A stretch of DNA of 64,000 nt from an uncultured delta proteobacterium (GTDB lineage: Bacteria > Desulfobacterota > Syntrophia > Syntrophales > Smithellaceae): contig CAWEQT010000002.1 in assembly GCA_963811325.1 (NCBI GenBank), positions 316,777-380,776 of the forward strand, written 5' to 3'. Made by a program: the position numbers and the translations under genes. Of this stretch, positions 1 to 41,289 are shown one piece after another. Below the pieces are notes generated by a model that was given only the letters and a program-made list of their open reading frames with translations, searched no databases and was not told the DNA's origin. The first letter of the stretch is position 1, and each line of letters starts with the position of its first letter.

Positions 1-1943
1 GGACGGCTTTCCTGTCTGGGAATTAACTTTCACAAACACAATGCCCTGCGGCACAGGAAATGATTCCACCGGCGTTTTTTGCAGGGCCTTTTCCATAAAA
101 TAAAGCCATATAGGAGCCGCCGTTCTTCCACCTACTTCCTGTTTCCCCAAAGTCATTTCGTGATCAAAACCCACCCAGACTCCGGTAATCAGGGAAGGAG
201 TCGCACCGATAAACCAAGCGTCACGATTATCATTTGTCGTTCCAGTTTTAGCGGCAACGGGTCTTCCTATGCCTCTAACCATCGTTCCGGTACCCTTTGT
301 CACTACATCCTGCATGACATAAGAGGTAATAAAAGCGATGCGGGGATCAATAACTTGTTCCGACTGAACCTTTGTTTCTTCAAAAACATTACCGGTGCGG
401 TCAACGATTTTTTTAATGAAAAAAGGCGTTACCTTTTTGCCCTGATTGGCCAGAACACCATAGGATTGGACAAGTTCCTGCAACGTCACACCGGATACGC
501 CTAAAGCCAATGATAATGTATGCACCAGAGGTGAAGTAATTCCCATATTCGCGGCATATGACACAACATAATCTACACCGATTTCCTGCAAAATTTTAAC
601 GGTAACAACATTGCGGGAGAGAACAAGCGCGGTTCTCATGGTAATCGGACCCATAAATTTTTCATCAAAGTTTCTCGGTTTCCAGATACCGCCTTCCTGA
701 GATGGATCTTCCAGAGCAATAGGCGAATCAACAAATACCGATGCCGGAGTCAAGCCCTTATCAAAAGCCGCTGTGTAGATAATAGGCTTAAAGGCTGAAC
801 CGGGCTGCCTCAGGGATTGTGTCGCGCGGTTGAATTCGCTTTTATTAAAATCACGTCCCCCGACCATCGCACGAATAGCGCCCGTTTTCACATCCATGCA
901 CAAAAGCGCGCCCTGAACAAGACCGGGTTGATATTTCTCCCTTTCTTCCAGCTCCTTCAGACCTTTTTCCATAGCATCGCTCGCGTATTTTTGCGCGTTT
1001 AAATCCAAAGTCGTATAAATGGAAAGACCTTCCTTGTATAGAACGTCGGCGCCATACTTTTCCTGTACATAGCGGCGGACGCTTTCCACGAAATAAGCGG
1101 CCATTTTGTCTTTTGGTTTGATTGGCCGCAATTTCAGCGGAGCGGCGGCCGCTTTTTCCATTTCTTCCTTTGATATGTAACCGTCTTCCATCATGCGCGT
1201 AAGAACGTAAAGTTGTCTTTCCTTTGCTTTCTCATAATGAAGAAACGGGGAATAGTTATTGGGAGCTTTAGGTAAAGCAGCCAGAAGGGCTGCCTCTTGC
1301 AGCTTCAGATCTTTGGCGCTTTTGCCAAAGTAACCTAATGACGCCGATTCTATTCCGTAAGTTCCGTGTCCCAGATAAATCTGGTTTAGATATAAATTAA
1401 GAATTTCATCTTTATTCAGATACTTATCAATTTTATAAGCAAGAATTGCTTCTTTGAGCTTACGAGTGTATTTTTTTTCAGGTGAAAGATACATCATCTT
1501 GGCTACCTGTTGCGTAATCGTGCTGCCTCCCTGGATGATATGCCCTGCCTCAAAATTTTTTAATACTGCTCGGGAAATGCCCAGTATATCCACACCCTTA
1601 TGCTCATAAAAACGGGAATCTTCCGCAGCAACAAAAGCATGGATCACTATCTTCGGAACTTCGGCAATCCTGACAAGTTTTCTGTCTTCCAAAAAAAATT
1701 CATCGATTAGCTGGTTGTTATCATCATAAACACGTGAGGCAATACTGGGACGATAATCTTTAAGCGCGTCAATGCCTGGTAAATCCAGCGTAAAGGCATA
1801 ATAGGCAATCGTTCCACCAACCGTCACCAGCAAGACAACAACGATTACACCCAGAAAAAGAGTAAAAAGCGAGGAAAGTTTTTTAACTTCTCCCTCTCTT
1901 TCTCTTTCAATTTTTTTATTTGACCTTCTACGGCGCAACGGCA
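1..1943 (-). CDS. mrcA: class A penicillin-binding protein 1A (glycosyltransferase + transpeptidase), C-terminus beyond window edge
   Basis: Absent from the ORF track because it runs off the window. My own translation of the minus strand from the ATG at 1941-1943 gives MPLRRRRSNKK... It has one TM helix, GT51 motifs EDSRFYEHKG and GGSTITQQ, and transpeptidase motifs SxxK (PGSAFKP) and KTGTT. The frame stays open to base 1. Confidence 0.9.
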
Positions 1944-1959
1944 TAATTTTTACCAACCA

Positions 1960-2748
1960 TTATTCTTTATTTTCGGATTCTTCTTTTTTCTTCCCGGCGA
2001 ATCGGGAAACAAATATACTCACTTCATACAAAAACATCAAGGGAATTGCCATTAATACCTGGCTTAAAGCATCCGGTGAAGGCGTTAAAATAGCGGCAAC
2101 TATAAAAATAATTAAAATAGCGTACCTTCGTTGTTTGGAAAGCATTGCAGCATTTACTATCCCCAGTTTGGTCAGGAAAAAAATAAATACCGGCAACTCA
2201 AAAGATATGCCAAATCCTAGTAAAAATGTCACAAAAAGCGACAGATAATCTTTAAATGACAGCATCGCCTGCAAATATTGATTATTAAAACTGACAAAGA
2301 ACTTAAAGGCGGGAGGCAAGGCAACAAAATATCCAAATAAAACACCGCTTATAAAAAGAATAGAGGAAGAAACCACAAAAGGAACCACATATTTTTTTTC
2401 CTTGAGCAATAATGCCGGTGAAATAAATTTCCATATCTGATAAAGAATATACGGGCTGGTAATTATCAGGGAGGCAAAAAAAGCTACTTTCATGTATGTA
2501 AAGAAAGCTTCCGTTAAACCGGTATAAATCAGATAACTGTTCTTAGGCAGAACTTGAGTTAGCGGCCTGGTAACAATATTAAAAACCACATCCTTATAAT
2601 AATAACAGATACCAAAACCTATACCAATCGCTATTAAAGAACGGGTAAGGCTTTTGCGAAGCTCTATTAAATGTTCGGTCAGAGACATTTTCCTGTCTTC
2701 GCTATTTTCGCTGTTTTCGTTATCTTTTTTATCTTCGTTATTTTCCAT
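1960..2748 (-). CDS. tatC: twin-arginine translocase subunit TatC
   Basis: 262-aa polytopic membrane ORF. It has the TatC-type N-terminal box MSLTEHLIELRKSL, preceded by an acidic 20-aa extension. It lies next to a tatA-like gene. Confidence 0.9.
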   Translation of the reverse strand: MENNEDKKDNENSENSEDRKMSLTEHLIELRKSLTRSLIAIGIGFGICYYYKDVVFNIVTRPLTQVLPKNSYLIYTGLTEAFFTYMKVAFFASLIITSPYILYQIWKFISPALLLKEKKYVVPFVVSSSILFISGVLFGYFVALPPAFKFFVSFNNQYLQAMLSFKDYLSLFVTFLLGFGISFELPVFIFFLTKLGIVNAAMLSKQRRYAILIIFIVAAILTPSPDALSQVLMAIPLMFLYEVSIFVSRFAGKKKEESENKE

Positions 2749-2840
2749 AATTCAACGTTTCGCTTATTCTTGACTTTACAATCCGGAAAAACTTATTTTT
2801 GAATTTATTGTTTGTCGGAAGTTTTATTGAATGAATCTGG

Positions 2841-3080
2841 TTAGAATTCTTCGGCATCACTTTGTTTCAACCAAGGCGAATCTTTCAGTTCATCGTCTTT
2901 TGGCTTTTCGTCGTTTTGTAATGTTTGTTTAAAATCGTCGGTTACTCCATCAAGAGCCTTACCGAATTCATTAAATCCCCTGCCAAGAGTTCTGGCCAAA
3001 TCAGGCAATTTTTTGGGATCAACGACAATTAACGCGATTACTGCAATTACAATAAGTTTCAGCATTCCTACGCCAAACAT
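2841..3080 (-). CDS. tatA: twin-arginine translocase TatA/TatB-family protein
   Basis: 79 aa. It has an N-terminal TM helix (LKLIVIAVIALIVV), a hinge plus amphipathic helix (DPKKLPDLARTLGRGFNEF) and an acidic tail. Confidence 0.85.
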   Translation of the reverse strand: MFGVGMLKLIVIAVIALIVVDPKKLPDLARTLGRGFNEFGKALDGVTDDFKQTLQNDEKPKDDELKDSPWLKQSDAEEF

Positions 3081-3312
3081 TGATAATTAATCCCCTGCTT
3101 CCATATTTGACGTATACCTATATATTGATTGCTGTTTTTGTCAATGTTTTTTGTAATATGCCTTTATCGGGATTTTATCGAATTTGTTTAATTAAAAATT
3201 AATAGAAGCATAAAATAGATATTGAAAAATCAGGGGAAATACTTTGCTCTTTAAAGCTATTTGTGATAAATAAACTAAAATTATAAATTGATTTTTACAA
3301 AAGAAGGATCGC

Positions 3313-4371
3313 TTGTCCAGAAAAACAGGTATTGTCAAGGATACAAGGTATTTACAGCATTCGGTTGGATTTGCTCATCCGGAAAGTCCGGAAAGGCTGG
3401 CGTCAATTTATGAAATGCTGGATAATCCACTGGAATCCTGGAAATTCAATTATATAGAGCCGCGTGAAGCCACTCACAAAGAGATTGAAGCCATTCATTC
3501 TCCTTCCTACGTAGAATTTATAGCGAGTACCGCAGGCAAGCGCAGTGTATATCTTGATCCTGATACAGCCACATCTCCGGAAACATACGAAATAGCAAAA
3601 CTGGCGGTCGGTGGAGTCTGTAATGCCATTGACAGCGTTATTGAAGGTAAGGTGGATAACGCGTTTGCTCTTGTACGGCCTCCGGGACACCACGCGGAAA
3701 AGGATACCGCCGCCGGTTTCTGTGTTTTTAATAATATTGCTATTGGGGCAATGCATGCCATTTTAAAGTACAATTTAAAAAAAATATTAATAGTTGATTG
3801 GGATTTACATCATGGCAACGGTACCCAACACAGTTTTTATGGCGATCAGCGTATTTTATATTTTTCCACGCACCAGTATCCCTATTACCCGGGAACGGGA
3901 GATTTGCAGGAAATCGGCCGGGGTGAGGGAGAATATTATACAATCAATATTCCTTTAAGCATGGGAGCAGGAGATTCCACTTTCGTTAAAATATTTCACA
4001 AAATTCTACAACCGGTAGCTTTGGAATATAAACCGGAATTGGTTTTATTATCCGCGGGCTTCGATACTTATTTTCAAGACCCGCTGGGCGGCATGCGCGT
4101 AACACCGAAAGGATTTGCCGCCATGACGCGCATATTGCTCAATATTGCCGATACCTGTTGCCAGGGACGTCTTGTAGCCGTGCTGGAAGGCGGTTATCAT
4201 GTAGCCGGATTAACCAAATCTGTAAAGGCTGTTCTGGAAGAGATGCTGGATGAAACACATTTTACGGAAGAAAAACTTTCTTCACTGGAAAAAGAGGTTG
4301 ATGAGGAAGCCAGTCAATCAATTATTAATAAAGTTATATCCAGAATCAGTCACTACTGGAAAGTGTTTTAA
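3313..4371 (+). CDS. histone deacetylase-family (AcuC/HDAC-like) deacetylase
   Basis: 352 aa with HDAC signatures VRPPGHHA, DWDLHHGNGTQ and LEGGYH. The start is TTG as given in the track. Confidence 0.85.
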   Translation: MSRKTGIVKDTRYLQHSVGFAHPESPERLASIYEMLDNPLESWKFNYIEPREATHKEIEAIHSPSYVEFIASTAGKRSVYLDPDTATSPETYEIAKLAVGGVCNAIDSVIEGKVDNAFALVRPPGHHAEKDTAAGFCVFNNIAIGAMHAILKYNLKKILIVDWDLHHGNGTQHSFYGDQRILYFSTHQYPYYPGTGDLQEIGRGEGEYYTINIPLSMGAGDSTFVKIFHKILQPVALEYKPELVLLSAGFDTYFQDPLGGMRVTPKGFAAMTRILLNIADTCCQGRLVAVLEGGYHVAGLTKSVKAVLEEMLDETHFTEEKLSSLEKEVDEEASQSIINKVISRISHYWKVF

Positions 4372-4386
4372 AAAGGAGGATGTGCT

Positions 4387-4674
4387 TTGAAAATAAGCTC
4401 CGGAGAAGTTGAATATGTGGCGAACTTAGCGCGTCTGGAAGTAACGGACAGGGAAAAAGAAAAATTTACCGCCCAACTCAACGATATTCTGCTTTACATA
4501 GATAAGTTAAACGAGTTAGATACCAAAGGCGTTGAGCCGATCAGCCACGCGATTGCCATAACTAACGCGTTTCGCGAAGATAAAATATTGGATTCAATCG
4601 GCACGGAAAATTCATTGGCCAACGCGCCGGACGCGCGCGGCGAGTTCTTCCGCGTGCCCAAAGTCATCGACTGA
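4387..4674 (+). CDS. gatC: Asp/Glu-tRNA amidotransferase subunit C
   Basis: 95 aa (LARLEVTDREKEKFTAQLNDIL...). An AGGAGG sequence sits about 8 nt upstream of the TTG start. It is followed by gatA and gatB. Confidence 0.9.
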   Translation: MKISSGEVEYVANLARLEVTDREKEKFTAQLNDILLYIDKLNELDTKGVEPISHAIAITNAFREDKILDSIGTENSLANAPDARGEFFRVPKVID

Positions 4675-4867
4675 CGATGCCATAAAAAGTTCCCGGTACG
4701 TGTGACCTTTAGGTTATTCGCCGGACTAAGCATCTACGTGGTTTATCCGGCGCATGCCGGATTGTGCTTCAGGCTTTGCGCACTTCGTATCTGAATCCTT
4801 TTACGACATCGTTAAAAATTTACAAGTTTGATATTTTCAAATATTCATCAATGATTTAGAGGGTACT

Positions 4868-6325
4868 ATGGAGTTACATCAGTTAACCATTCACGAATTG
4901 CAGAAAAAAATTAAAAACGGCAACATCTCGGCGACGCAGATTACTCAGTCCGTTTTTTCACGAATTGATGCTGTCGAAGAACGGGTACATTCCTACATTC
5001 GCCTGATGAAGGAAGAAGCTTTTGAGACCGCGGCAAAGGCTGACCAGAACATTAAAAACGGCGATATAAAACCATTAACCGGAATTCCCATCGCCTTAAA
5101 AGATATTGTCTGCACTAAAGGCATCACTACAACATGTGGTTCGCACATATTGCACAATTTTATTCCCCCTTATAATGCGACCGTTGTGAAAAAACTTCTA
5201 GACGCCGGAGCCATATTTGTCGGCAAAACTAACATGGATGAATTTGCCATGGGCTCTTCCACGGAAACTTCATATTTCGGCCCTACCCGCAATCCATGGG
5301 ATTTAGAGCGTATTCCCGGCGGTTCCAGCGGAGGTTCGGCCACAGCGGTTGCCGCCGATGAATGCATCGCTTCCATTGGTTCTGATACAGGAGGTTCTAT
5401 CCGCCAGCCTGCGGCGCTTTGCGGCATTGTCGGCATGAAACCGACTTATGGCCGTGTATCTCGCTTTGGTCTTATCGCGTTCGCATCATCGCTTGATCAA
5501 ATCGGCCCTTTTACCAAAGATGTGAAAGACTGTGCCATTATGATGAATGTTCTGGCAGGCTTTGATTCCAGAGAATCAACTTCCGTACCTGCGGAAGTTC
5601 CCGATTACCGGCAGTTTGCCGGACGGGATATTAAAGGCTGGAGGATAGGCATTCCCAAAGAATACTTCGTGGAAGGCATTGATCCGGAAGTGAACACCTC
5701 CATTCAAAAAGCAATCTCGGTAATCGAACAAAACGGCGGGCAATGTGTGGATATAACGCTTCCGCACACTCAATATTGTCTGGCTGTCTATTATATTATC
5801 GCTCCGGCAGAGGCCTGCTCCAATCTGGCGCGTTACGATGGCGTTAGATATGGCCATAGAGCAACCGATGTCCGCGATCTTTTGGATATGTACAAAAAGA
5901 CGCGTATGCAGGGATTCGGCGCGGAAGTTAAAAGAAGAATCATGATTGGCACTTATGCTTTATCTGCCGGCTATTACGATGCCTATTATAAAAAAGCTTC
6001 CCAGGTACGAGCTTTAATCAAGCGGGATTTTGAAGAAGCCTTTAAAAATTGCGATGTTATTCTTACTCCAACTACACCGACACCGGCTTTTAAAATCGGC
6101 GAAAAAACCGACAATCCATTACAAATGTATCTTTCCGATATTTTCACCATATCAACAAACCTTGCGGGAATTCCGGGAATTTCCGTCCCTTGCGGATTTA
6201 CTTCCGGCGGCCTGCCGATAGGAATGCAGTTTCTGGCCAGCCATTTTGAGGAAGGAAAATTAATTCAAATTGCCTCTGCTTATGAAAAGAGCGCTGAAAT
6301 TGAAAAGAGGAGGCCTTCATTATAA
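4868..6325 (+). CDS. gatA: Asp/Glu-tRNA amidotransferase subunit A
   Basis: 485 aa with the amidase signature GGSSGGSA...[12 protein letters not shown]. Confidence 0.95.
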
Positions 6326-12249: not shown

Positions 12250-12388
12250 AACAATACCTTTCCTGTGCGATAATTAGTTAATAACTATTTTTTGTGAATA
12301 AGTAAAGCGATGTATTGTACCATTTCTAAATCAAAGATGATATTGCGGCTAGGCGGATTATACACATGTAACCTTCAGATTATACATT

Positions 12389-12543
12389 GAAGAAACCGGC
12401 AACGACCCAATTATACACCGGGTTTCGCTGCCAACAAAATAGCGCTTTGATCGGAAGCGCATTCCCTTTAGGAAGGTGCATAATAAATAGAAACTTACAT
12501 TGCCGGGAGTTTTCGCCATGCTGGCGAAAACTCTCTTTAGAAT
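12389..12543 (+). repeat. structured intergenic repeat, copy A (strand is the arbitrary element-sense)
   Basis: The reverse complement of 12429-12506 aligns to 25200-25277 with about 10 mismatches and 1 indel over 79 nt (hand count). A perfect 11-bp hairpin lies at 12507-12533 (gagttttcgcc/atgct/ggcgaaaactc), followed by CTTTAGAAT. The element sits between the smc stop and the ftsY start. Confidence 0.8.
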
Positions 12544-12548
12544 GGGAA

Positions 12549-15500
12549 TTAATTCAAATTGACGGAAACCAGAGTTGATATTCCATGTTTTTGCATGGTC
12601 ACGCCAAAGAGCGTGTCAGCAACTTCCATTGTACTCTTGTTGTGCGTAATCATGACTACTTGAGATTTTTGGGCAACATCCTTAATTAAACGGTTAAAGA
12701 GATTGGTGTTGGCGTCATCCAAAGCGGCGTCAACTTCGTCTAAAATCAAAAACGGCGATGGACGGTATTTTAAAATGGCAAAAATAAGAGCAACAGCCAC
12801 TAGTGATTTTTCACCGCCGGAAAGTAAATTAACATTTTGCTTTCTTTTACCGGGGACCTGAATATCAATATCCACTCCTGTTTCCAGCAAATCATTTTCA
12901 TCAGTCAGCAACAATTCTCCATGGCCGCCTGGAAATATTTGCGCGAATACTTCTTTAAAACAGACGTTGACGGCTTCAAAGGTTTCGGCAAATCTGGCGC
13001 GGGAAATTTTATTAATGCGCGTAATCGTCCTTTGCAGAACATTAAGAGATGAGCTTAAATCGGATACTTGCGTTGATAAGAAGTTGTAACGCTTATCGAG
13101 TTCTTCATATTCATTAAGAGCAAGCAAATTAACTTCGCCGAAAGTGTCTATTATTTGTTTATTGTTTTCCAATAAGGTGATAAGTTCGGCAAGTTTTTCT
13201 TCTTCAATCTTTTCAAATCCCGAAACCATGCTTCCCAGATCAACATCGTGTTTTTCGGCAATTACTTTTTTCAGATTTTCGCTGTTTAAGGCCACTTCCC
13301 TGCATTGAATTTCCATTTCATTTAGCTGCTGGCGCAATTCATCAAGTTTCTTTTTTGTTTCCCTGATTTCATTTTCTCTTGTTTTCAGTTGCGCGTCTTC
13401 ACGATTTTGTCCCGCCCTCTTTTCCGCCAGAAGCGTTTCCTGCGCTGCGAAGCCCTGATAATGTTCTTTGAGCAATTCCTGCTCATTTTCGATTGTTTGA
13501 GTTAATTCCACAATCTTTTTTTCGCACAAAACAATCTCCTCGCCCTTAATGTTATTTTCACTGGCTATGTCGTTGATATCATTTTGCAGTCGTGATATTG
13601 TTCGCAAATCAGCTTCTTTTTTCTCTTCCAGAGAAGCCATCTCTATTTTCTTGCCTGTTAAATAACGTTCCTGTTCATTAATTTCCGCCCGGGACTGTTC
13701 CATCTTCTGGTTAAAGACGGAAATGACTTCATTGATTTCTTTTTCTTCTTCATCTTTATGTAAGATATCGGCGTTAAATTTTTGCGACTTTTCTTCATCT
13801 TCCGATTTTTCCGCATTAAGATTTTGCCGGTTAAATTCCAAAACAGCAATCCTCTGTTTTAACCTATTTGTCTCGGCTTCAAACCGTTCGTGATCCTTCT
13901 TTCTACCGTTAACGGCAATTTCCAATGAATGAATATCCGTCTTTATTTGACTGAGTTCTTCTTCCCATCGTAAAATAGTGGAAACAAGATTATTTTTTTG
14001 ACTTGTTTTTACATCCAGATCCGCAACCAGCGATGATACTTCCATTTCCAGTTCGCCAATTTCTCTTTTTGTCGCCAGAAGGCTTTTCTCTACCACCGAA
14101 CCACTGCCGCCGGTCAATACACCTTGCGGACTGATGATATCTCCCTCCGGTGTGACAAAAGTGCCCCTAAAACCATTTTTCTTCCAGAGAGAAATTCCAT
14201 TTTCAATTGTTGGTATCAGCAAAACGTCGCCCAACAGGCAATCAACAATTTGTTTAAAATCTTCATGGACTTTAACTTTCTGCAGTAGGGATTGGGCTTC
14301 CTGGAGGTGTTCGTCGCCGTAAGTTTTCGCGTCATGATTTCTCAAATCTACCGAGACAAAACTGCCCCTGCCCAACTGATAGTTTTTTAAATAATCAATC
14401 GCGCGCACGCCGTCTTCCTGACTTTTAACCACCACATACTGTAATTTTTCTCCCAAAACCGCTTCCACGGCTTCTTCATATTCGCGGGGCACACTTATAT
14501 GATCGGCTATGACTCCGTAAAATTTATCGCTGTGTTCCTTATTTTCGATTATTTTTTTGATGCCTTCATTGCACCATTTATACGATTCCCGAAACTCTTT
14601 CAGGGAAATTAACCGGGACGACTTGACGCTGTTTTCTTCCTTGATTTTAGCGATATCTTCTTCGTTTAACTGCAAATCTGATTTGGATCGCTCAAGTTCG
14701 GACGAAGCTTCCCCTTTTTTTTCTTCCAGTTTAATGATTTGGGCTTCATCCTTCTTTAATTCTTCATTTACCGACTCCAGTTTGTTTACCAGACCAGCAA
14801 ACATCTTTTTATCTTCGTCAAGTTCGCGTGTTTCTCTTTCCTCGCGTTTTATTAAATCCTCAATATTTTTGCTCAGGCTGGAAACCATGTTTTTAAGCTT
14901 GGCTTTTTCCGTCACGATATCAATAAATAAAATCTTCTTTTTTTCCAGTTGATTACTTACTTCTTTATTGGCATTGATAAGCTCTTGAACTTTCTGCTGA
15001 CCTTCTTCATGCTCTGTTTTAAGAACGGCAATTTTATTTTTAGCTTCAGCCGCGCTTTTTTGTAGATTTTCAATTTCGTCCATTAAATCTATTTTCTTCG
15101 TCTGCAGCAACTGAATTTCCGCCAAATCTCTTTGCTTGCGTTCGGAAGTATCAGTGATTTGGCGGCGGGCAAATTCGATGCTTTTCTCTTTAATGCTTAT
15201 AGTGTTTTTAATCTCGTAGAGTTCATGCTGGCTTTTAGCTATTAACTCTTCATTTTCCAGGAGCTTTACTTTAAGTTCATCTATTGCCGATTCTTTAGCT
15301 TCGATACTCGCGTGTATGACTGCATCCTGATTTTGCAGATCTGTGCGCTCGGCCTGCAGCGAAGATTCCCTTTCGGCAAGTTCAACATAGCTTTGCATGG
15401 CAATCGTCAATTCCGTTTCTCTGCTTTGTTGTTTTATATTTTTATACTGTTCCGCTCTCTTGGCCTGCCTGGAGATAGCATTGAGTTGGGATTTCACTTC

Positions 15501-25142: not shown

Positions 25143-25160
25143 AATATACCTCTTTACATC

Positions 25161-25296
25161 AATTCTAAAGGGAATTTTCGCCATGCTGGCGAAAATTCCC
25201 GGCAAGGTGGGTTTCTATTTATTATACGCCCCCCTAAAGTGAATGCGCTTCCGATCACAGCACTATTTTTGTTGGCATCGTTGTCGGCTTCGGGAA
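25161..25296 (-). repeat. structured intergenic repeat, copy B (inverted relative to copy A)
   Basis: See copy A. A perfect 13-bp hairpin lies at 25170-25200 (gggaattttcgcc/atgct/ggcgaaaattccc). The core spans 25200-25277. A weaker match to A continues to about 25296, where A carries a 23-nt insertion. Confidence 0.8.
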
Positions 25297-25622
25297 CGTT
25301 TGTAAATCCGGGAGTTCATCCCCGAAGGGGCACAATATAATTTGTCTCAATATAATAACGGGCCTTACAAAATTTATACATTAACCTTAAAGTGATTACA
25401 AGAACATACATTATTCTGAAAAAGCTGGTGAAATCTGGTTCGAAAAGATTTGACAATATCGTTTATTGTCTAGTAAATGTATTTATGTGGAGGTTTGACT
25501 AAAACCTTACAAGACAATTTCAGATGTTTTTGTAAAGAGCCCCGCCATGCCACTTTCAGTAATGGCGGGAGAATGAGGGGGAAAATATTCTCATCTATAA
25601 ATTACACAAAAAATTGCACAAA

Positions 25623-26927: not shown

Positions 26928-29588
26928 TTATTTAATTACCGACTTATCAAAACCGGCCAGTGAGAATTTAAGTGAAAATCCAGTGTAGGTAGAAGTCTGG
27001 GTAAAATCCAATCCCATGCTCCAGCACTGTTTGTGATAAACAAAGCCCAGCGTGTTTTCTACTGTTTGGGAATTAAACAGATCATATCTCGAAATAAATG
27101 TGGCATCAATATTTTTTGCAATTAGCGCTTTCAAGTTAAAGTCTATTTCTTCAACAGAATTCACGGTATAACGGTAACCGATTGACAACGAATCGCCGCG
27201 CCAATCTTTGACATTCAAATCATAACTCGACTGATCCCAGCCGCCGTAAACATTGTATAGATTACGCACCATAAAAGAAAAATATTTATGAGGAGTAAAA
27301 TCAAATTCCATTCCGATATCAGAGAAAGGCATTCTTTCTTGAGTAATTCCCTCCATATTTTTATTGGCTTCATTTATGTCATACGTCTGGAATAATTTAA
27401 ATCGTAGAAACTCCAGATAGCTGTAAGCGCCGGTATCATCCTTTACTTTGGCCGTAAGGGTGTTTGTAAGTGACCAGGCAACGGCGTTTTGTCCTTCTAA
27501 GCCGTATGAAGCAATCGTGACAGGCAAAGAAGAAAAAGTGCCAACAATGCCCTCAAAAGCTTTACCGGATGCAGTTGTGATGGGAGTTGTACCGGGCATT
27601 ATAAATGGCGAAAAAGCAGGCAAATAATAATCAGGCATGTTGCCTTGGGACACGTTGGGGACGTAAGAATATATTATTTCCGGTTTTATTTCATGACTTA
27701 TTTTTTCCCAATTTCCCAAATTTATATCAAAGACACGGGATGCCTGACTGCTTAAGGATAATAACGCATTGTAAATAGTTGTATCACCGGATTTACTGCC
27801 TGAACCGGTTTGGTTGTCATCGCGGTCCCAGGATGTCTCTTTGAGAGAAAACTGCGGGGTTACTTTAAGATAGTTGGATATATTAAAAGGCATGGAAACA
27901 GTTGGTGAAAAATCAATGTAGTGCCCTTTTTGTCCCGCTCCACTATAGAAATAATCATAAGTTCCGGTAAAGTCATAATATAATGGCGTATTCATAAATT
28001 GCTGTTTACTGCCCGCCAAAACGATCTCCGGATATCTTTGCAAAGTTTGATCATTAATGACGGCATTATAATCTTCTGTGGTGTCTATCAATCCCGTCAA
28101 ACTGTAATTAGACCATTCTTTAAACACGCGGACGGTTGATTCTAAATAACGAAGAGTCTGGTCGGCCTTGAAAGGAACATTTTTAAAACTGTCACCTGTC
28201 GTCTCGGCATAATTATTAAAAAAGTAATTATGAGCCGAAAAATCCTGAAAATACCATTTGTCGGATATATCTATTATATCTGTTCTTACATAAAATTGCG
28301 GATCAAAATTTGTTTGACTATTAAAATAATAAGACCAGCGCTTATGCATTTCCTGCCAGTCGCGGTTTGTTGCCTCATAGGTCGTTTCGGTGACATGTTC
28401 CGTATCCTCGATGTAATCGCCATAAAAAGTTCCGAAGGAATTATTCCCCAGATAGTATCTGTATTCCGCACCTTCTTGAAATCCTCTTTTTTCGATGTAA
28501 TTTTGGTAAAAAGTCGCATCCATCTGGGGGGAAATAGCCCAGAAATAAGGAACCTCTATATCGATGCCATCATTATTTGAACTGGAAAGATACGGAATAA
28601 GAAATCCCGACTGACGTTCACTTTTCGCCGGAAATGGAAGATACGGGGAATAGAACGCCGGCAAACCTTTCACGAGGAACTGGGCATCTTTCATTAAACC
28701 ATAGCCTTCCATTGTTACCTTCATTTCACTGCCGGCGATTGCCCAATCAGGCTTGTCGCCATCACAAGTTGTCGCAACAGGTTGTTCGATCAAATATGTA
28801 TTCTCTCCGGTTTTCTCAATTTTATCGCCATTTACATAAAAATTATTCATCGCGTAAAAGGCATGGGCCATATAAGCGGCGCCTGTTTTATCTTCAATAT
28901 TTAAAACAATTTTTTCACCCTGCAGAGTATCTTCTCCCGTTTTAAGAAACGCATTGCCCTGAGCCGTGGCAACATTATTTTTATTATCCAACTCCACGTC
29001 ATCGGCGGAAAGAGCGGCTCCGCTGTATGTTATGTTTACTTTACCCTTAGCGTGATACACATCGCGAACATTGTCGTAGTCCATGCTGTCCGCTTCGATA
29101 TTCACAGGATTCTCATTACTCCTGGCACCAAAATTTTTCAGAAGGTTATTGCTCTGAACGGGAGCGGCATTTTTTTTATTATCCAACTCATCGTCACCGG
29201 CATAAATAGCGTCATCGCTGTAAATTACGATTACTTTCCCCTGGACTTGATACACATCTCTGGAATTGTCGTCGTCCATGCTTCCGGCCCCATCAGCAAA
29301 AGCTGCGGGAGGTAAAAATAAAATTATTATCGCAATCAGAAAGGCAATCGTTAAATCGAAATTACTACATGGTCGCCTTCCTTGGCTGACTTTGTCGGCC
29401 TCGCCGTATCCTCCTTGCCGCCGCGTTATCCTTTGACCGGGGGTGCGATTGCAAGGAGCACAATAAATAACATTTTTTACTTTACCGCGAACTGACGCCT
29501 CTTCGGCGTCAGATTCCATGCAACTTGGTACTAATATAAAAATATCGTTATTTTCTGATTTAATATTTTTATACCCGATCAAGTTCAT
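26928..29588 (-). CDS. lptD: LPS-assembly outer-membrane protein LptD (start codon unresolved)
   Basis: This is the maximal 886-aa ORF. It has an OstA-type N-terminal domain (ADSMDYDN..AKGKVNITYSG..LSADDVELD), a large beta-barrel, and the signal-like segment LTIAFLIAIIILFLPPAAFA at residues about 78-100. No in-frame ATG, GTG or TTG lies just upstream of that segment. Confidence 0.85.
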   Translation of the reverse strand: MNLIGYKNIKSENNDIFILVPSCMESDAEEASVRGKVKNVIYCAPCNRTPGQRITRRQGGYGEADKVSQGRRPCSNFDLTIAFLIAIIILFLPPAAFADGAGSMDDDNSRDVYQVQGKVIVIYSDDAIYAGDDELDNKKNAAPVQSNNLLKNFGARSNENPVNIEADSMDYDNVRDVYHAKGKVNITYSGAALSADDVELDNKNNVATAQGNAFLKTGEDTLQGEKIVLNIEDKTGAAYMAHAFYAMNNFYVNGDKIEKTGENTYLIEQPVATTCDGDKPDWAIAGSEMKVTMEGYGLMKDAQFLVKGLPAFYSPYLPFPAKSERQSGFLIPYLSSSNNDGIDIEVPYFWAISPQMDATFYQNYIEKRGFQEGAEYRYYLGNNSFGTFYGDYIEDTEHVTETTYEATNRDWQEMHKRWSYYFNSQTNFDPQFYVRTDIIDISDKWYFQDFSAHNYFFNNYAETTGDSFKNVPFKADQTLRYLESTVRVFKEWSNYSLTGLIDTTEDYNAVINDQTLQRYPEIVLAGSKQQFMNTPLYYDFTGTYDYFYSGAGQKGHYIDFSPTVSMPFNISNYLKVTPQFSLKETSWDRDDNQTGSGSKSGDTTIYNALLSLSSQASRVFDINLGNWEKISHEIKPEIIYSYVPNVSQGNMPDYYLPAFSPFIMPGTTPITTASGKAFEGIVGTFSSLPVTIASYGLEGQNAVAWSLTNTLTAKVKDDTGAYSYLEFLRFKLFQTYDINEANKNMEGITQERMPFSDIGMEFDFTPHKYFSFMVRNLYNVYGGWDQSSYDLNVKDWRGDSLSIGYRYTVNSVEEIDFNLKALIAKNIDATFISRYDLFNSQTVENTLGFVYHKQCWSMGLDFTQTSTYTGFSLKFSLAGFDKSVIK
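28951..29282 (-). repeat. internal duplication of the LptD N-terminal OstA motif
   Basis: Units 29146-29282 (SMDDDNSRDVYQVQGKVIVIYSDDAIYAGDDELDNKKNAAPVQ) and 28951-29090 (SMDYDNVRDVYHAKGKVNITYSGAALSADDVELDNKNNVATAQ) are similar at both DNA and protein level. Confidence 0.7.
29431..29512 (+). repeat. structured repeat, diverged copy D (antisense inside the lptD 5' extension)
   Basis: The sequence ttgaccgggggtgcgattgcaaggagcacaataaataac...ccgcg is followed by an 8-bp hairpin at 29492-29512 (ctgacgcc/tcttc/ggcgtcag). It is colinear with copies A, B and C. Confidence 0.6.
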
Positions 29589-29802
29589 TATTTTACCTTT
29601 GTCAGCTAAGATTGTATCTTTCTTACTTATTTTTTTACTATCATATAAGATTATTTTATGAAATGGGATTGTTTAAAAACCCATGATTATTGACTGTTCA
29701 ACAATGCTCAGATGCAAGGCGCGTAAAAACCGAATCGCGAGACGCAGATGGATATACGTTGAGCGGTGCGTTTTGCAGTGCAACAAAGCAGATGAGTGTT
29801 TT

Positions 29803-29885
29803 GTAAAACCCTTCGGCTTTTACCGGCAAGGAATATTATTATTCATTATTGCGCCTCCTACCGGAATGCGCCCCCGGTTAACAGT
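29803..29885 (-). repeat. structured repeat, diverged copy C (overlaps the folC stop codon)
   Basis: The reverse complement reads ttaaccgggggcgcattccggtaggaggcgcaataatgaataataat..ttgccg, followed by a hairpin (gtaaaa...ttttac, 29803-29823). It is inverted relative to copy D, 290 bp away. Confidence 0.6.
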
Positions 29886-40236: not shown

Positions 40237-41289
40237 CTAAATATTCTTTTCTATGATTTGGATGTTTATTGAAGAGCAGGTTACGCTACTCTTGCCGGCA
40301 TAAACAAAGGCAACTATCCATAAAACAACCAGGAAAATAATTAGACCGGGATTCCAGAGAGATTTAATACCAATTAACAAATTGGGCAAACCGCTATCAG
40401 GCTCTTTAATAAATGGAACCACCAGGAGAGTATAACCAATGGCAAACAATATCATAATCTGGTAAGCAGAAATGAAACCTTGCCCCCGATAATCGGCCCG
40501 CAGGAATTCGGAAGCAAAACGCCATCCCTGCGTTATTAAAAGCGCGATTATCAAAGCTGCATAGGCCGTACCTCTCAAAAACAAGTAAAAGCTAATAAAC
40601 CCCGCACCAGTATATATAACTGCTGTAAGTGCTTGGATAGGAACAACCGTTTGACCTTCGAGCTGCTGGGCATACGCAATTTTTTTCGTCTTCCCCCGAA
40701 ATACAAAATTCCACTTACGAAAGATTCTTTTAATTAACGGATGACATGCAGAGAGAGGTTTCCCATAACAACAACCGAAACTTATGCAGGCAAGCCGGCC
40801 TATCCCTTCACCGAAAGCATAGGCAACAACTATTGCTGCCATGGTTTCTAACATCGGCACCCGGAACTCCAGCCAGTTACCTAACGTTATATTGACCAGC
40901 CATATGATCCACGGTGCAATCAAGATACCGGCAAAGGAAGCACCTCCTATGGAAAATGTGTGATGTTTCTTTTCCACCAAGCGGGCAATTAAGCGAGAGG
41001 CCAGCATGCAAATTGCTAAAAACGGTGTAACAAGAGATATGGTTCCTGCAATCTTAATGCCCAGCGAACCCATCATTATCAAGAATATGACAACTGCAAA
41101 CAGATAGGCCAAAGCATTAAAAAATCCATAATAGGTTAAATTAATACCATTCCAAATTCCATCTTGCCCCTTGCGCGTAGGCAGACAGGCAAGAACTTGC
41201 CAATTTTCTTCGGGCAGTGTTCTAAAAGCCCATGAGAATAAAACTGCAATCACTCCTGCAAGAACCAATGTAAAGATTTCATCATACAT
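40237..41289 (-). CDS. prolipoprotein diacylglyceryl transferase (Lgt) family membrane protein
   Basis: 350 aa and polytopic. It has the Lgt-family variant motif GRLACISFGCCYGKP and a distal FASEFLRADYRG. This is a family-level call only. Confidence 0.6.
   Translation of the reverse strand: MYDEIFTLVLAGVIAVLFSWAFRTLPEENWQVLACLPTRKGQDGIWNGINLTYYGFFNALAYLFAVVIFLIMMGSLGIKIAGTISLVTPFLAICMLASRLIARLVEKKHHTFSIGGASFAGILIAPWIIWLVNITLGNWLEFRVPMLETMAAIVVAYAFGEGIGRLACISFGCCYGKPLSACHPLIKRIFRKWNFVFRGKTKKIAYAQQLEGQTVVPIQALTAVIYTGAGFISFYLFLRGTAYAALIIALLITQGWRFASEFLRADYRGQGFISAYQIMILFAIGYTLLVVPFIKEPDSGLPNLLIGIKSLWNPGLIIFLVVLWIVAFVYAGKSSVTCSSINIQIIEKNI

Follow-up and report, generated by a model that had tools for sequence, protein, structure and literature searches.

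What is the repeated, hairpin-ending element at positions 12389 to 12543 of this DNA, and is its structure kept for the sake of an RNA or of the DNA itself? The stretch analyzed here, referred to as the window, comprises 64,000 nt of contig CAWEQT010000002.1 (assembly GCA_963811325.1, positions 316,777 to 380,776 of the forward strand) from an uncultured delta proteobacterium of the Smithellaceae, and its FtsY and FolC proteins have Smithella proteins as homologues, at 83 to 100% identity. A sequence-only reading had described four copies, A to D, of a conserved core followed by a hairpin that is fixed in position and variable in sequence. The match between A and B is real, and it extends further than the approximately 80 nt claimed: blastn aligned 12426-12543 (+) with 25162-25280 (-) over 119 nt at 84.9% identity (E = 3.3e-33). 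C and D are indeed diverged homologues, since a multi-genome profile of the A/B type found D at 29431-29535 (+) (E = 3.6e-7) and C at 29823-29881 (-) (E = 1.6e-5); in the rest of the 64 kb it returned only reverse-strand, self-complementary echoes of the hairpins. The genes surrounding the window copies, namely, those for FtsY, SMC, QueG, an MltB-like transglycosylase, LptD, and FolC, had also been named correctly.

The "core plus variable hairpin" proved to be a module of about 85 to 95 nt that makes up only the 3' part of a larger element. This core is usually nested in a second module of about 130 nt, referred to here as the carrier, whose terminal helix holds it within one of its two arms; the nested two-module architecture and the outer terminal helix had both gone unnoticed. 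The carrier (about 125 to 135 nt) has ends that form a helix of 15 to 19 bp, typically ATACCA+N10 ... N10+TGGTAT. It starts with ATACCA+N10+TCAAAG(A/G)ATAACG and ends with the complement of that arm, and the inner sequence of the terminal helix varies from copy to copy with its complementarity kept. The carrier interior contains a conserved purine-rich stretch, GAGGCGGCAAGGAGGAGGCGAC, and then a conserved hairpin, GGCGTATTAATAATACGTT, followed on the 3' side by GAGGAAGCCGACAACGA, an optional extra hairpin, and CGCCAACAAAGTTAGC. The core starts with a conserved imperfect hairpin (CGGRRGCGC-A-TTCCC..GGGAR-GCGC) and continues with the AT-rich ATAATAAATAG, TTAC.TTRCCG, and a subfamily-specific hairpin. 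No conserved open reading frame is present in the carrier, and the core alone lacks inverted termini.

Copy A is a complete composite of 232 nt at 12318-12549 (+) (full-length nhmmer model, E = 2e-55), so that the bounds given previously were too narrow. It lies in the smc-ftsY spacer, antisense to both genes, and is closed by the terminal inverted repeat TACCATTTCTAAATCAAAG ... TTTAGAATGG. The left arm, TACCATTTCTAAATCAAAG (12318-12336), pairs with CTTTGAT (12445-12451) plus TTTAGAATGG (12536-12545). Alignment with the carriers of other genomes placed the carrier interior at 12337-12451, where 12405-12423 form the optional hairpin and 12438-12451, AATAGCGCTTTGAT, are the part of the right arm that precedes the core. 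The core occupies 12452-12535, as delimited by the core alignment and by the absence of a core at the same site in relatives whose FtsY proteins are 95, 94, 91, and 89% identical. It contains the conserved hairpin P4 (within 12452-12479), the AT-rich stretch plus TTAC..TTGCCGG (12480-12506), and the variable hairpin P5 (12507-12533), after which the distal right arm, TTTAGAATGGGAAT, follows at 12536-12549; all of these parts are on the forward strand. What had been taken for the tail of the A/B hairpin, CTTTAGAAT, is thus the resumed arm of the outer helix.

Copy B (25157-25306, -; nhmmer E = 5.5e-38) consists of a carrier 3' half (25254-25306), a core (about 25170-25253) with its variable hairpin at 25172-25198, and an arm remnant, TTTAGAATTGATG (25157-25169, -), and it lies directly upstream of the queG ribosome-binding site. 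Just upstream of it, at 25319-25331 (-), we observed a perfect CCCC-TTCG-GGGG tetraloop hairpin, adjoined by an 8-bp direct repeat, TTATATTG ... TTATATTG. Copy C (29789-29884, -; nhmmer E = 1.6e-5) is a solitary core of a second subfamily with the hairpin GTAAAAGCC..GGTTTTAC at 29803-29823 (-). This core has the orientation of folC, begins in the region of the folC stop codon, and aligns with L005 7707-7809 and L026 2036-2095, both of which abut stop codons of unrelated genes (L numbers denote the loci or contigs fetched from other assemblies: L002, L005 to L010, L014, L017 to L020, L022, and L024 to L031). Beside copy C, a tentative carrier remnant with the central hairpin motif GAGACGCAGATGGATATACGTTGAG was recognized by eye, below the nhmmer threshold, at 29739-29770 (+).

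The remaining copy, D (29437-29512, +; nhmmer E = 3.6e-7), is a core with a third type of hairpin, CTGACGCC..GGCGTCAG (29492-29512, +). It had been placed at the 5' boundary of lptD; it is in fact inside the lptD reading frame, as part of a composite of 168 nt (56 codons) inserted in frame at 29364-29531. The carrier of this composite lies on the reverse strand; read on that strand, its left arm occupies 29513-29531, and its right arm, which is shortened, lies at about 29364-29377. The previous statement that all copies sit at gene boundaries therefore does not hold, one copy being inside a coding frame. Two further matches to the terminal motif, at 41144 and 41590, were rejected as chance matches inside coding sequence.

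With the relatives included, four unrelated stem sequences occur at the same position after TTRCCG: GAGTTTTCGCC.. in copies A and B, GTAAAAGCC.. in C and in the cores L005b and L026b, CTGACGCC.. in D, and GTAATTGCTAC.. in one copy in L028. In A and in most of the relatives, the core is located in the right carrier arm, between CTTTGAT and TTTAGAATGG, and in D it occupies the mirror-image point of the other arm, inverted with respect to its carrier. C, L005b, and L026b are solitary cores that begin at or just past the stop codons of three unrelated genes. Carriers also occur without a core, at L007 9868-9996, L006 2716-2842, L002 366-498, L002 1930-2058, and L030 15384-15512, as well as in the smc-ftsY spacer of four relatives. 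A hairpin-like remnant without a core in L029 had raised the idea that the variable hairpin is a pre-existing terminator beside which the core inserts; this was rejected because the arms of core-less carriers have no hairpin there, so that the hairpin comes with the core. The same carrier locus in different samples (L008 versus L009, L010, and L014) differs by a 9-nt indel between CAACGA direct repeats, and small internal deletions are therefore ongoing. Two other identities were discarded as well: a small open reading frame, since MILRRQGGGDEAY-like frames are not kept and the stretch is missing from some copies, and an integron attC site, since there are no cassette arrays and the center of the element is conserved rather than variable.

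A search with a degenerate core pattern among 185,579 species genomes found six loci, five in Smithella metagenome-assembled genomes and one in an "uncultured delta proteobacterium." None of the six shares the flanking genes of the window; their neighbors are unrelated housekeeping genes encoding a penicillin amidase, a histidine kinase, a BrkB-like protein, OmpA, and a GT87 glycosyltransferase. Eight metagenome contigs carried the pattern as well, mostly at the same loci and in peat samples, and searches of viral contigs, plasmids, and phages gave no match. Across Smithella assemblies, the cores amounted to 16 distinct copies and the carriers to about 12. A literature search yielded no description of repeats in Smithella or Syntrophus. 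We conclude that this is a real and previously undescribed repeat family of unusual nested build, restricted to the Smithella lineage within the genomes and metagenomes searched.

Comparison with the orthologous sites fetched from relatives showed that presence or absence is lineage specific at four sites. The smc-ftsY spacer measures 299 nt in the window, where it holds composite A; it measures 148 to 203 nt, with a core-less carrier, in L031, L024, L025, and L026 (relatives with FtsY identities of 95, 94, 91, and 89%) and 77 nt in L027, an 85% relative. The core at this site is therefore confined to the species of the window. The carrier of the window differs from that of the 95% relative far more than the flanking spacer does, which could be explained by gene conversion or re-insertion rather than by simple insertion of a core. 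L024 also carries, at 1879-5387, an island between an Oxidored_FMN gene and a CBS gene that is lacking in the window and contains Bro-N, a RelA_SpoT-domain protein, and a faint IS1-like open reading frame. Copy B is missing from the orthologous site in three of three relatives (L028, L029, and L030), which have an AAA-ATPase gene or its remnant there and no element. This gene, encoding an AAA_23/SMC_N-type ATPase of about 240 amino acids, lies between the MltB-like gene and queG at L029 15376-16098 and L030 20640-21320; L028 retains only its first codons, and the corresponding interval of the window (25143-25613) has none of it and copy B instead.

The folC and lptD genes overlap in L030 and are separated in the window by a spacer of about 290 nt with copy C and the carrier remnant. 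Copy C is common to the window and L028 (an 88% relative), degraded in L029 (an 83% relative), and absent from L030. L028 and L029 also have this AT-rich spacer (29589-29877 in the window), which includes the carrier remnant and seems to consist of debris accumulated from repeats. The insertion in lptD, absent from the three relatives, follows codon 20 and adds 56 residues ahead of the signal-peptide core. An LptD of 886 amino acids was called in three independent assemblies of the same species, and the contig of a fourth ends within the gene. The inserted residues, VPSCMESDAEEASVRGKVKNVIYCAPCNRTPGQRITRRQGGYGEADKVSQGRRPCS, lie between residue 20 and the hydrophobic core of the signal peptide. 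The Met start of LptD in one relative (MAIIILFL) corresponds to Ile in this species, so that the extension may really be translated.

A repeat present in several copies breaks the de Bruijn graph during assembly. Five Logan short-read assemblies of the same species (L017 to L020 and L022) stop at the same base, 219 nt upstream of ftsY and inside the A core, which implies near-identical copies elsewhere in that genome. We consider it very probable that the family is selfish mobile repeat DNA.

The structure of the element, said by the sequence-only reading to be conserved where the sequence is not, bears closer inspection, because covarying helices would also be expected of an RNA. In the comparison of A with B, the compensatory G-C to A-T change at the base of the stem is present (GAGTTTTCGCC/GGCGAAAACTC in A versus GAATTTTCGCC/GGCGAAAATTC in B), as is the second small stem, which reads GCGCTT/AAGCGC in A and, kept paired by a G·T wobble, GTGCT/AGCGC in B. 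Among all copies, seven of the eight pairs of the variable hairpin change on both sides and 100% of its cells pair. The terminal helix was scored in the nine copies whose arms are ungapped: both partners change in 10 of 16 pairs, and 88% of cells pair compared to 71% in shuffles and 35 to 44% in slid controls; the arms were picked by hand from those already seen to pair, which inflates the pairing statistics, and the copies are related by descent, so that the counts of changes are not counts of independent events and overstate independence. Even the apparently conserved ATACCA end has become ACACTG in L028, with its partner changed to match, and a second long-range helix switches between TAAC/GTTA and TATT/AATA. 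The predicted helices thus covary strongly through compensatory change, and structure is kept without sequence conservation, as had been proposed.

These changes are distributed asymmetrically between the strands. The conserved core hairpin contains 19 G·T cells versus 3 A·C cells, two stacked pairs of the carrier hairpin vary among G·U, A-U, and G-C, and, regardless of the surrounding sequence, five of nine copies have T·G at position 9 of the terminal helix. It follows that one strand, the strand as written here, is the folding strand.

Such folds might be maintained for the function of structured RNAs, acting either in trans as small RNAs or in cis as leader or 3'-end cassettes that stabilize, terminate, or regulate neighboring messages. 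Several features would suit this explanation, which we nevertheless regard as unlikely: the multihelix folds with their compensatory changes and one-strand G·U pairs, a predicted RNA fold of copy A (-67.7 kcal/mol) that is stabler than those of shuffled sequences (z = -4.4), the location of all three independent solitary subfamily-2 cores directly after stop codons in the sense orientation, the position of B within the queG leader, and a terminator-like hairpin, GCGCTTCCGATCAAAGCGC followed by TATTTTGTTG, on the reverse strand of composites. The only plausible transcription, however, would read about half of the copies in the antisense direction; where tandem genes make the context unambiguous, about six were sense and five were antisense. 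There is no conserved promoter (TTGCCG and TAGAAT, tried as a promoter, are 32 nt apart, with no consensus site within the element), and the variable hairpin has no U tract. One composite lies in frame inside an essential gene, and copies come and go between close relatives while the surrounding genes are conserved. Taken together, the antisense orientation of about half of the copies, the lack of a promoter and of a T run, the in-frame copy, and the turnover argue against an RNA function and fit selfish DNA that depends on its fold.

Known RNA families were of no help to the RNA explanation either. Scanning the 64 kb with the Rfam release 15 covariance models at gathering thresholds gave no match, and E-value scans of A, C/D, and three L002 copies gave only subthreshold ones, to RsaJ (23 bits versus a threshold of 100) and PrrB_RsmZ (21.9 versus 44). 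The lone RsmZ-like match, obtained with one copy and not reproduced on A, C, or D, was dismissed as noise, so that the earlier view that this is not an Rfam family stands. A subthreshold match to the ribosomal protein L20 leader (37.4 bits; gathering threshold, 58.7; E = 4.7e-5) at L002 2909-3012 (+) adjoins a composite repeat and overlaps a terminator-like hairpin. The suggestion of a mobile terminator or leader cassette did not survive: the tails after the variable hairpins (TCTCTTTAG, CAAAAC, ATTCCATG, and AAGCAAAA) contain no T run in any subfamily, unlike a SPRITE-like intrinsic terminator cassette, in which a T run follows a G+C-rich hairpin, and the orientation is about half sense and half antisense. 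A terminator scan left the variable hairpins of A and B unflagged and marked only the small GCGCTT..AAGCGC stem of A, on both strands. A riboswitch or preQ1 leader for queG was rejected since the same element occurs at unrelated genes.

If the family moves as DNA, its insertion sites should bear on how it does so. The lptD site is empty in L030 (ATATTA^AATCTCG) and filled in the window (ATATTA[GTACCAAG...CATGTAGT]AATTTCG), and this clean pair shows no target-site duplication. At the A locus, relatives without the core read GCGCTTTGAT^T(G/T)AGGAATGG, with the window core at the caret, that is, a junction of TTTGAT^T(G/T)AGG. The flanks of 12 carrier copies share no direct repeat of at least 3 bp. 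TA adjoins CCA and TGG on both sides in most carrier copies, and in L030 the terminal TA/TA has become TG/CA, which is complementary and not repeated; the terminal TA therefore covaries as a base pair. Cores are preceded by TTGAT, GTGAT, TTGAC, TTAAC, TTGGC, TAAAC, or TAAAT, and about 7 of 13 carriers have a TAT(T/C)-like flank directly before them.

Of the candidates that had been listed, a MITE-like element came closest, as copies are gained and lost and short-read assemblies break at them; the target-site duplication that was to be looked for is missing. A classical MITE, i.e., a deletion derivative of an insertion sequence with a DDE transposase (for example, IS630/Tc1-like with a TA target) that is moved as a duplex by cut and paste via its terminal inverted repeats, would be small, noncoding, dispersed, and assembly breaking, and the carrier is all of these, with complementary ends of 15 to 19 bp and CCA.../...TGG termini bordered by TA on both sides in most copies. 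TA is self-complementary, however, and hence indistinguishable from a helix pair, and its mutated form (TG...CA in L030) is complementary; together with the lptD pair without duplication, this makes a duplex mechanism improbable. A transposase that binds duplex DNA would likewise leave unexplained the compensatory changes in the inner arms, the one-strand wobbles, and a core module without inverted termini. Nor did a scan of about 385 to 400 kb of Smithella DNA for matching ends 0.3 to 4 kb apart around an open reading frame reveal any longer element that shares the ends of the family.

We thus favor the view that the family probably consists of Smithella-specific, small, noncoding, nonautonomous mobile DNA repeats of two modules, moved in trans via a folded single-strand intermediate. 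On this view, the elements would spread as DNA and depend on an enzyme whose gene lies elsewhere; instead of a duplex sequence, this enzyme would recognize the folded form of a single strand, in a peel-and-paste or REP/RAYT-like route through single-stranded DNA. Locus tables revealed no transposase of any kind adjoining a copy or in the window, and the mobilizing enzyme is therefore one that we infer. The lack of duplication, the wobbles and bulges on one strand, and the lack of a nearby transposase are best fitted by a trans-acting enzyme that reads a single-strand fold, such as those of the RAYT/REP or IS200/IS605 family. Covariation would then reflect selection for transposability and not for RNA function, and effects on the host, such as stable hairpins in read-through transcripts and the N-terminal addition of 56 residues to LptD, would be by-products.

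The assignment to an HUH-type single-strand route in particular is tentative, and we rate it as possible rather than probable. Elements of the IS200/IS605 type lack terminal inverted repeats, and their strand distribution is biased with respect to replication. Counter to such a route, the carrier does have a terminal inverted repeat, and no strand bias is visible in the window, where the copies split 2:2 between the strands in a small sample from a region whose genes, including a ribosomal operon, are nearly all on one strand.

It is also conceivable, though improbable, that carrier and core are a parasite-on-parasite pair moved by a novel structure-reading system with a mechanism outside the described families of insertion sequences. 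In that case the core would home to a single fixed site in the terminal helix of the carrier, on either of its arms, without causing a duplication, and the enzyme would read shape (the fixed T·G wobble and the bulged A) instead of sequence; the forward-strand fold might possibly serve as an RNA cofactor as well. Least probable are orphan ends or guide-RNA scaffolds of an RNA-guided or site-specific element (an IS110 bridge RNA or a TnpB/IscB omega-RNA), left as nonautonomous copies with the sequence-variable helices as specificity segments, since the variable segments are self-complementary hairpins rather than single-stranded guides matching the flanks, no recombinase, TnpB, or IscB gene lies near any copy, and HEARO and other Rfam scaffolds do not match, even if the missing duplication, the conserved scaffold with variable segments, the nesting of the core at one fixed point of either carrier arm, and the TTGAT-, TTGAC-, or TTAAC-like pentamers before cores would agree with it.

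The Smithella family is best seen as an addition to a known class of genomic parasites rather than as a new regulatory RNA. REP/REPIN sequences are short hairpin repeats mobilized in trans by RAYT (TnpA-REP) tyrosine transposases, which are encoded by a single-copy gene elsewhere (PMC3116915, PMC8266576). As in REPINs, the Smithella elements are nonautonomous, mostly extragenic, and vertically persistent in one lineage, with compensatory changes in hairpins, no target duplication, and a substrate presumed to be single stranded (PMC3116915, PMC8266576). In contrast to REPs, which are palindromes of 20 to 40 nt with a GTAG-type head and inverted doublets, the Smithella units of 85 to 135 nt have several helices and conserved unpaired segments, and REP-style inverted doublets were not seen among them. 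PATEs derived from IS200/IS605 share the lack of duplication, subterminal imperfect hairpins with bulges and wobbles on one strand, and possibly insertion next to a short motif (TTGAT-like before cores). Unlike those of IS200/IS605, whose ends are not complementary and whose two hairpins are alike, the carrier ends are complementary and the two core hairpins are unrelated; moreover, the window copies show no strand bias, and no Y1 transposase was seen near them or in the fetched loci, for which no Y1_Tnp domain is listed.

ERIC sequences are imperfect palindromes of about 127 bp; internal deletions give rise to shorter variants, and insertions at fixed sites within the element give rise to longer ones (PMC10969869). 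Their copy number, too, varies among related taxa, copies are occasionally intragenic, and no mobilizing enzyme has been identified (PMC10969869), but the inverted repeat of ERIC is conserved in sequence whereas the Smithella arms differ between copies, and the two have no sequence similarity. Pneumococcal BOX elements are built of boxA-boxB-boxC modules with complementary ends, and BOX, RUP, and SPRITE elements insert into one another and cluster, a modular composition and nesting that resemble those described here; SPRITE is a hairpin-ended cassette, which recalls the mobile terminator idea (PMC10969869). The SPRITE hairpin is terminator-like with a T run, which the Smithella core hairpin lacks, and RUP differs in having an IS630-type parent and a TA duplication (PMC10969869). 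Rickettsia palindromic elements (RPE), of about 100 to 150 bp, are tolerated in frame in protein-coding genes (PMC10969869). The 168-nt insertion in lptD is similarly tolerated, and for RPE as well the transposase has not been identified; RPE are predominantly intragenic, unlike the Smithella family, with one of five window copies inside a gene. The family is not a sequence member of REPIN, ERIC, BOX/SPRITE, or RPE.

Smithella species, key uncultured syntrophic degraders of alkanes and propionate, have become known almost exclusively through bins recovered from metagenomes. Being dispersed and disruptive to assembly, the repeat accounts for contig ends and can lead binning astray, and since it turns over between close relatives, it offers a fine-scale strain marker. 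That an in-frame copy is possible in an essential outer-membrane gene is relevant to genome annotation. The helices of the family are a clean natural example of maintenance by compensatory change on one strand with no sign of an RNA function, and they call for caution in covariation-based RNA discovery. Finally, the search for the enzyme by which such elements move without duplicating their target can start from this family.
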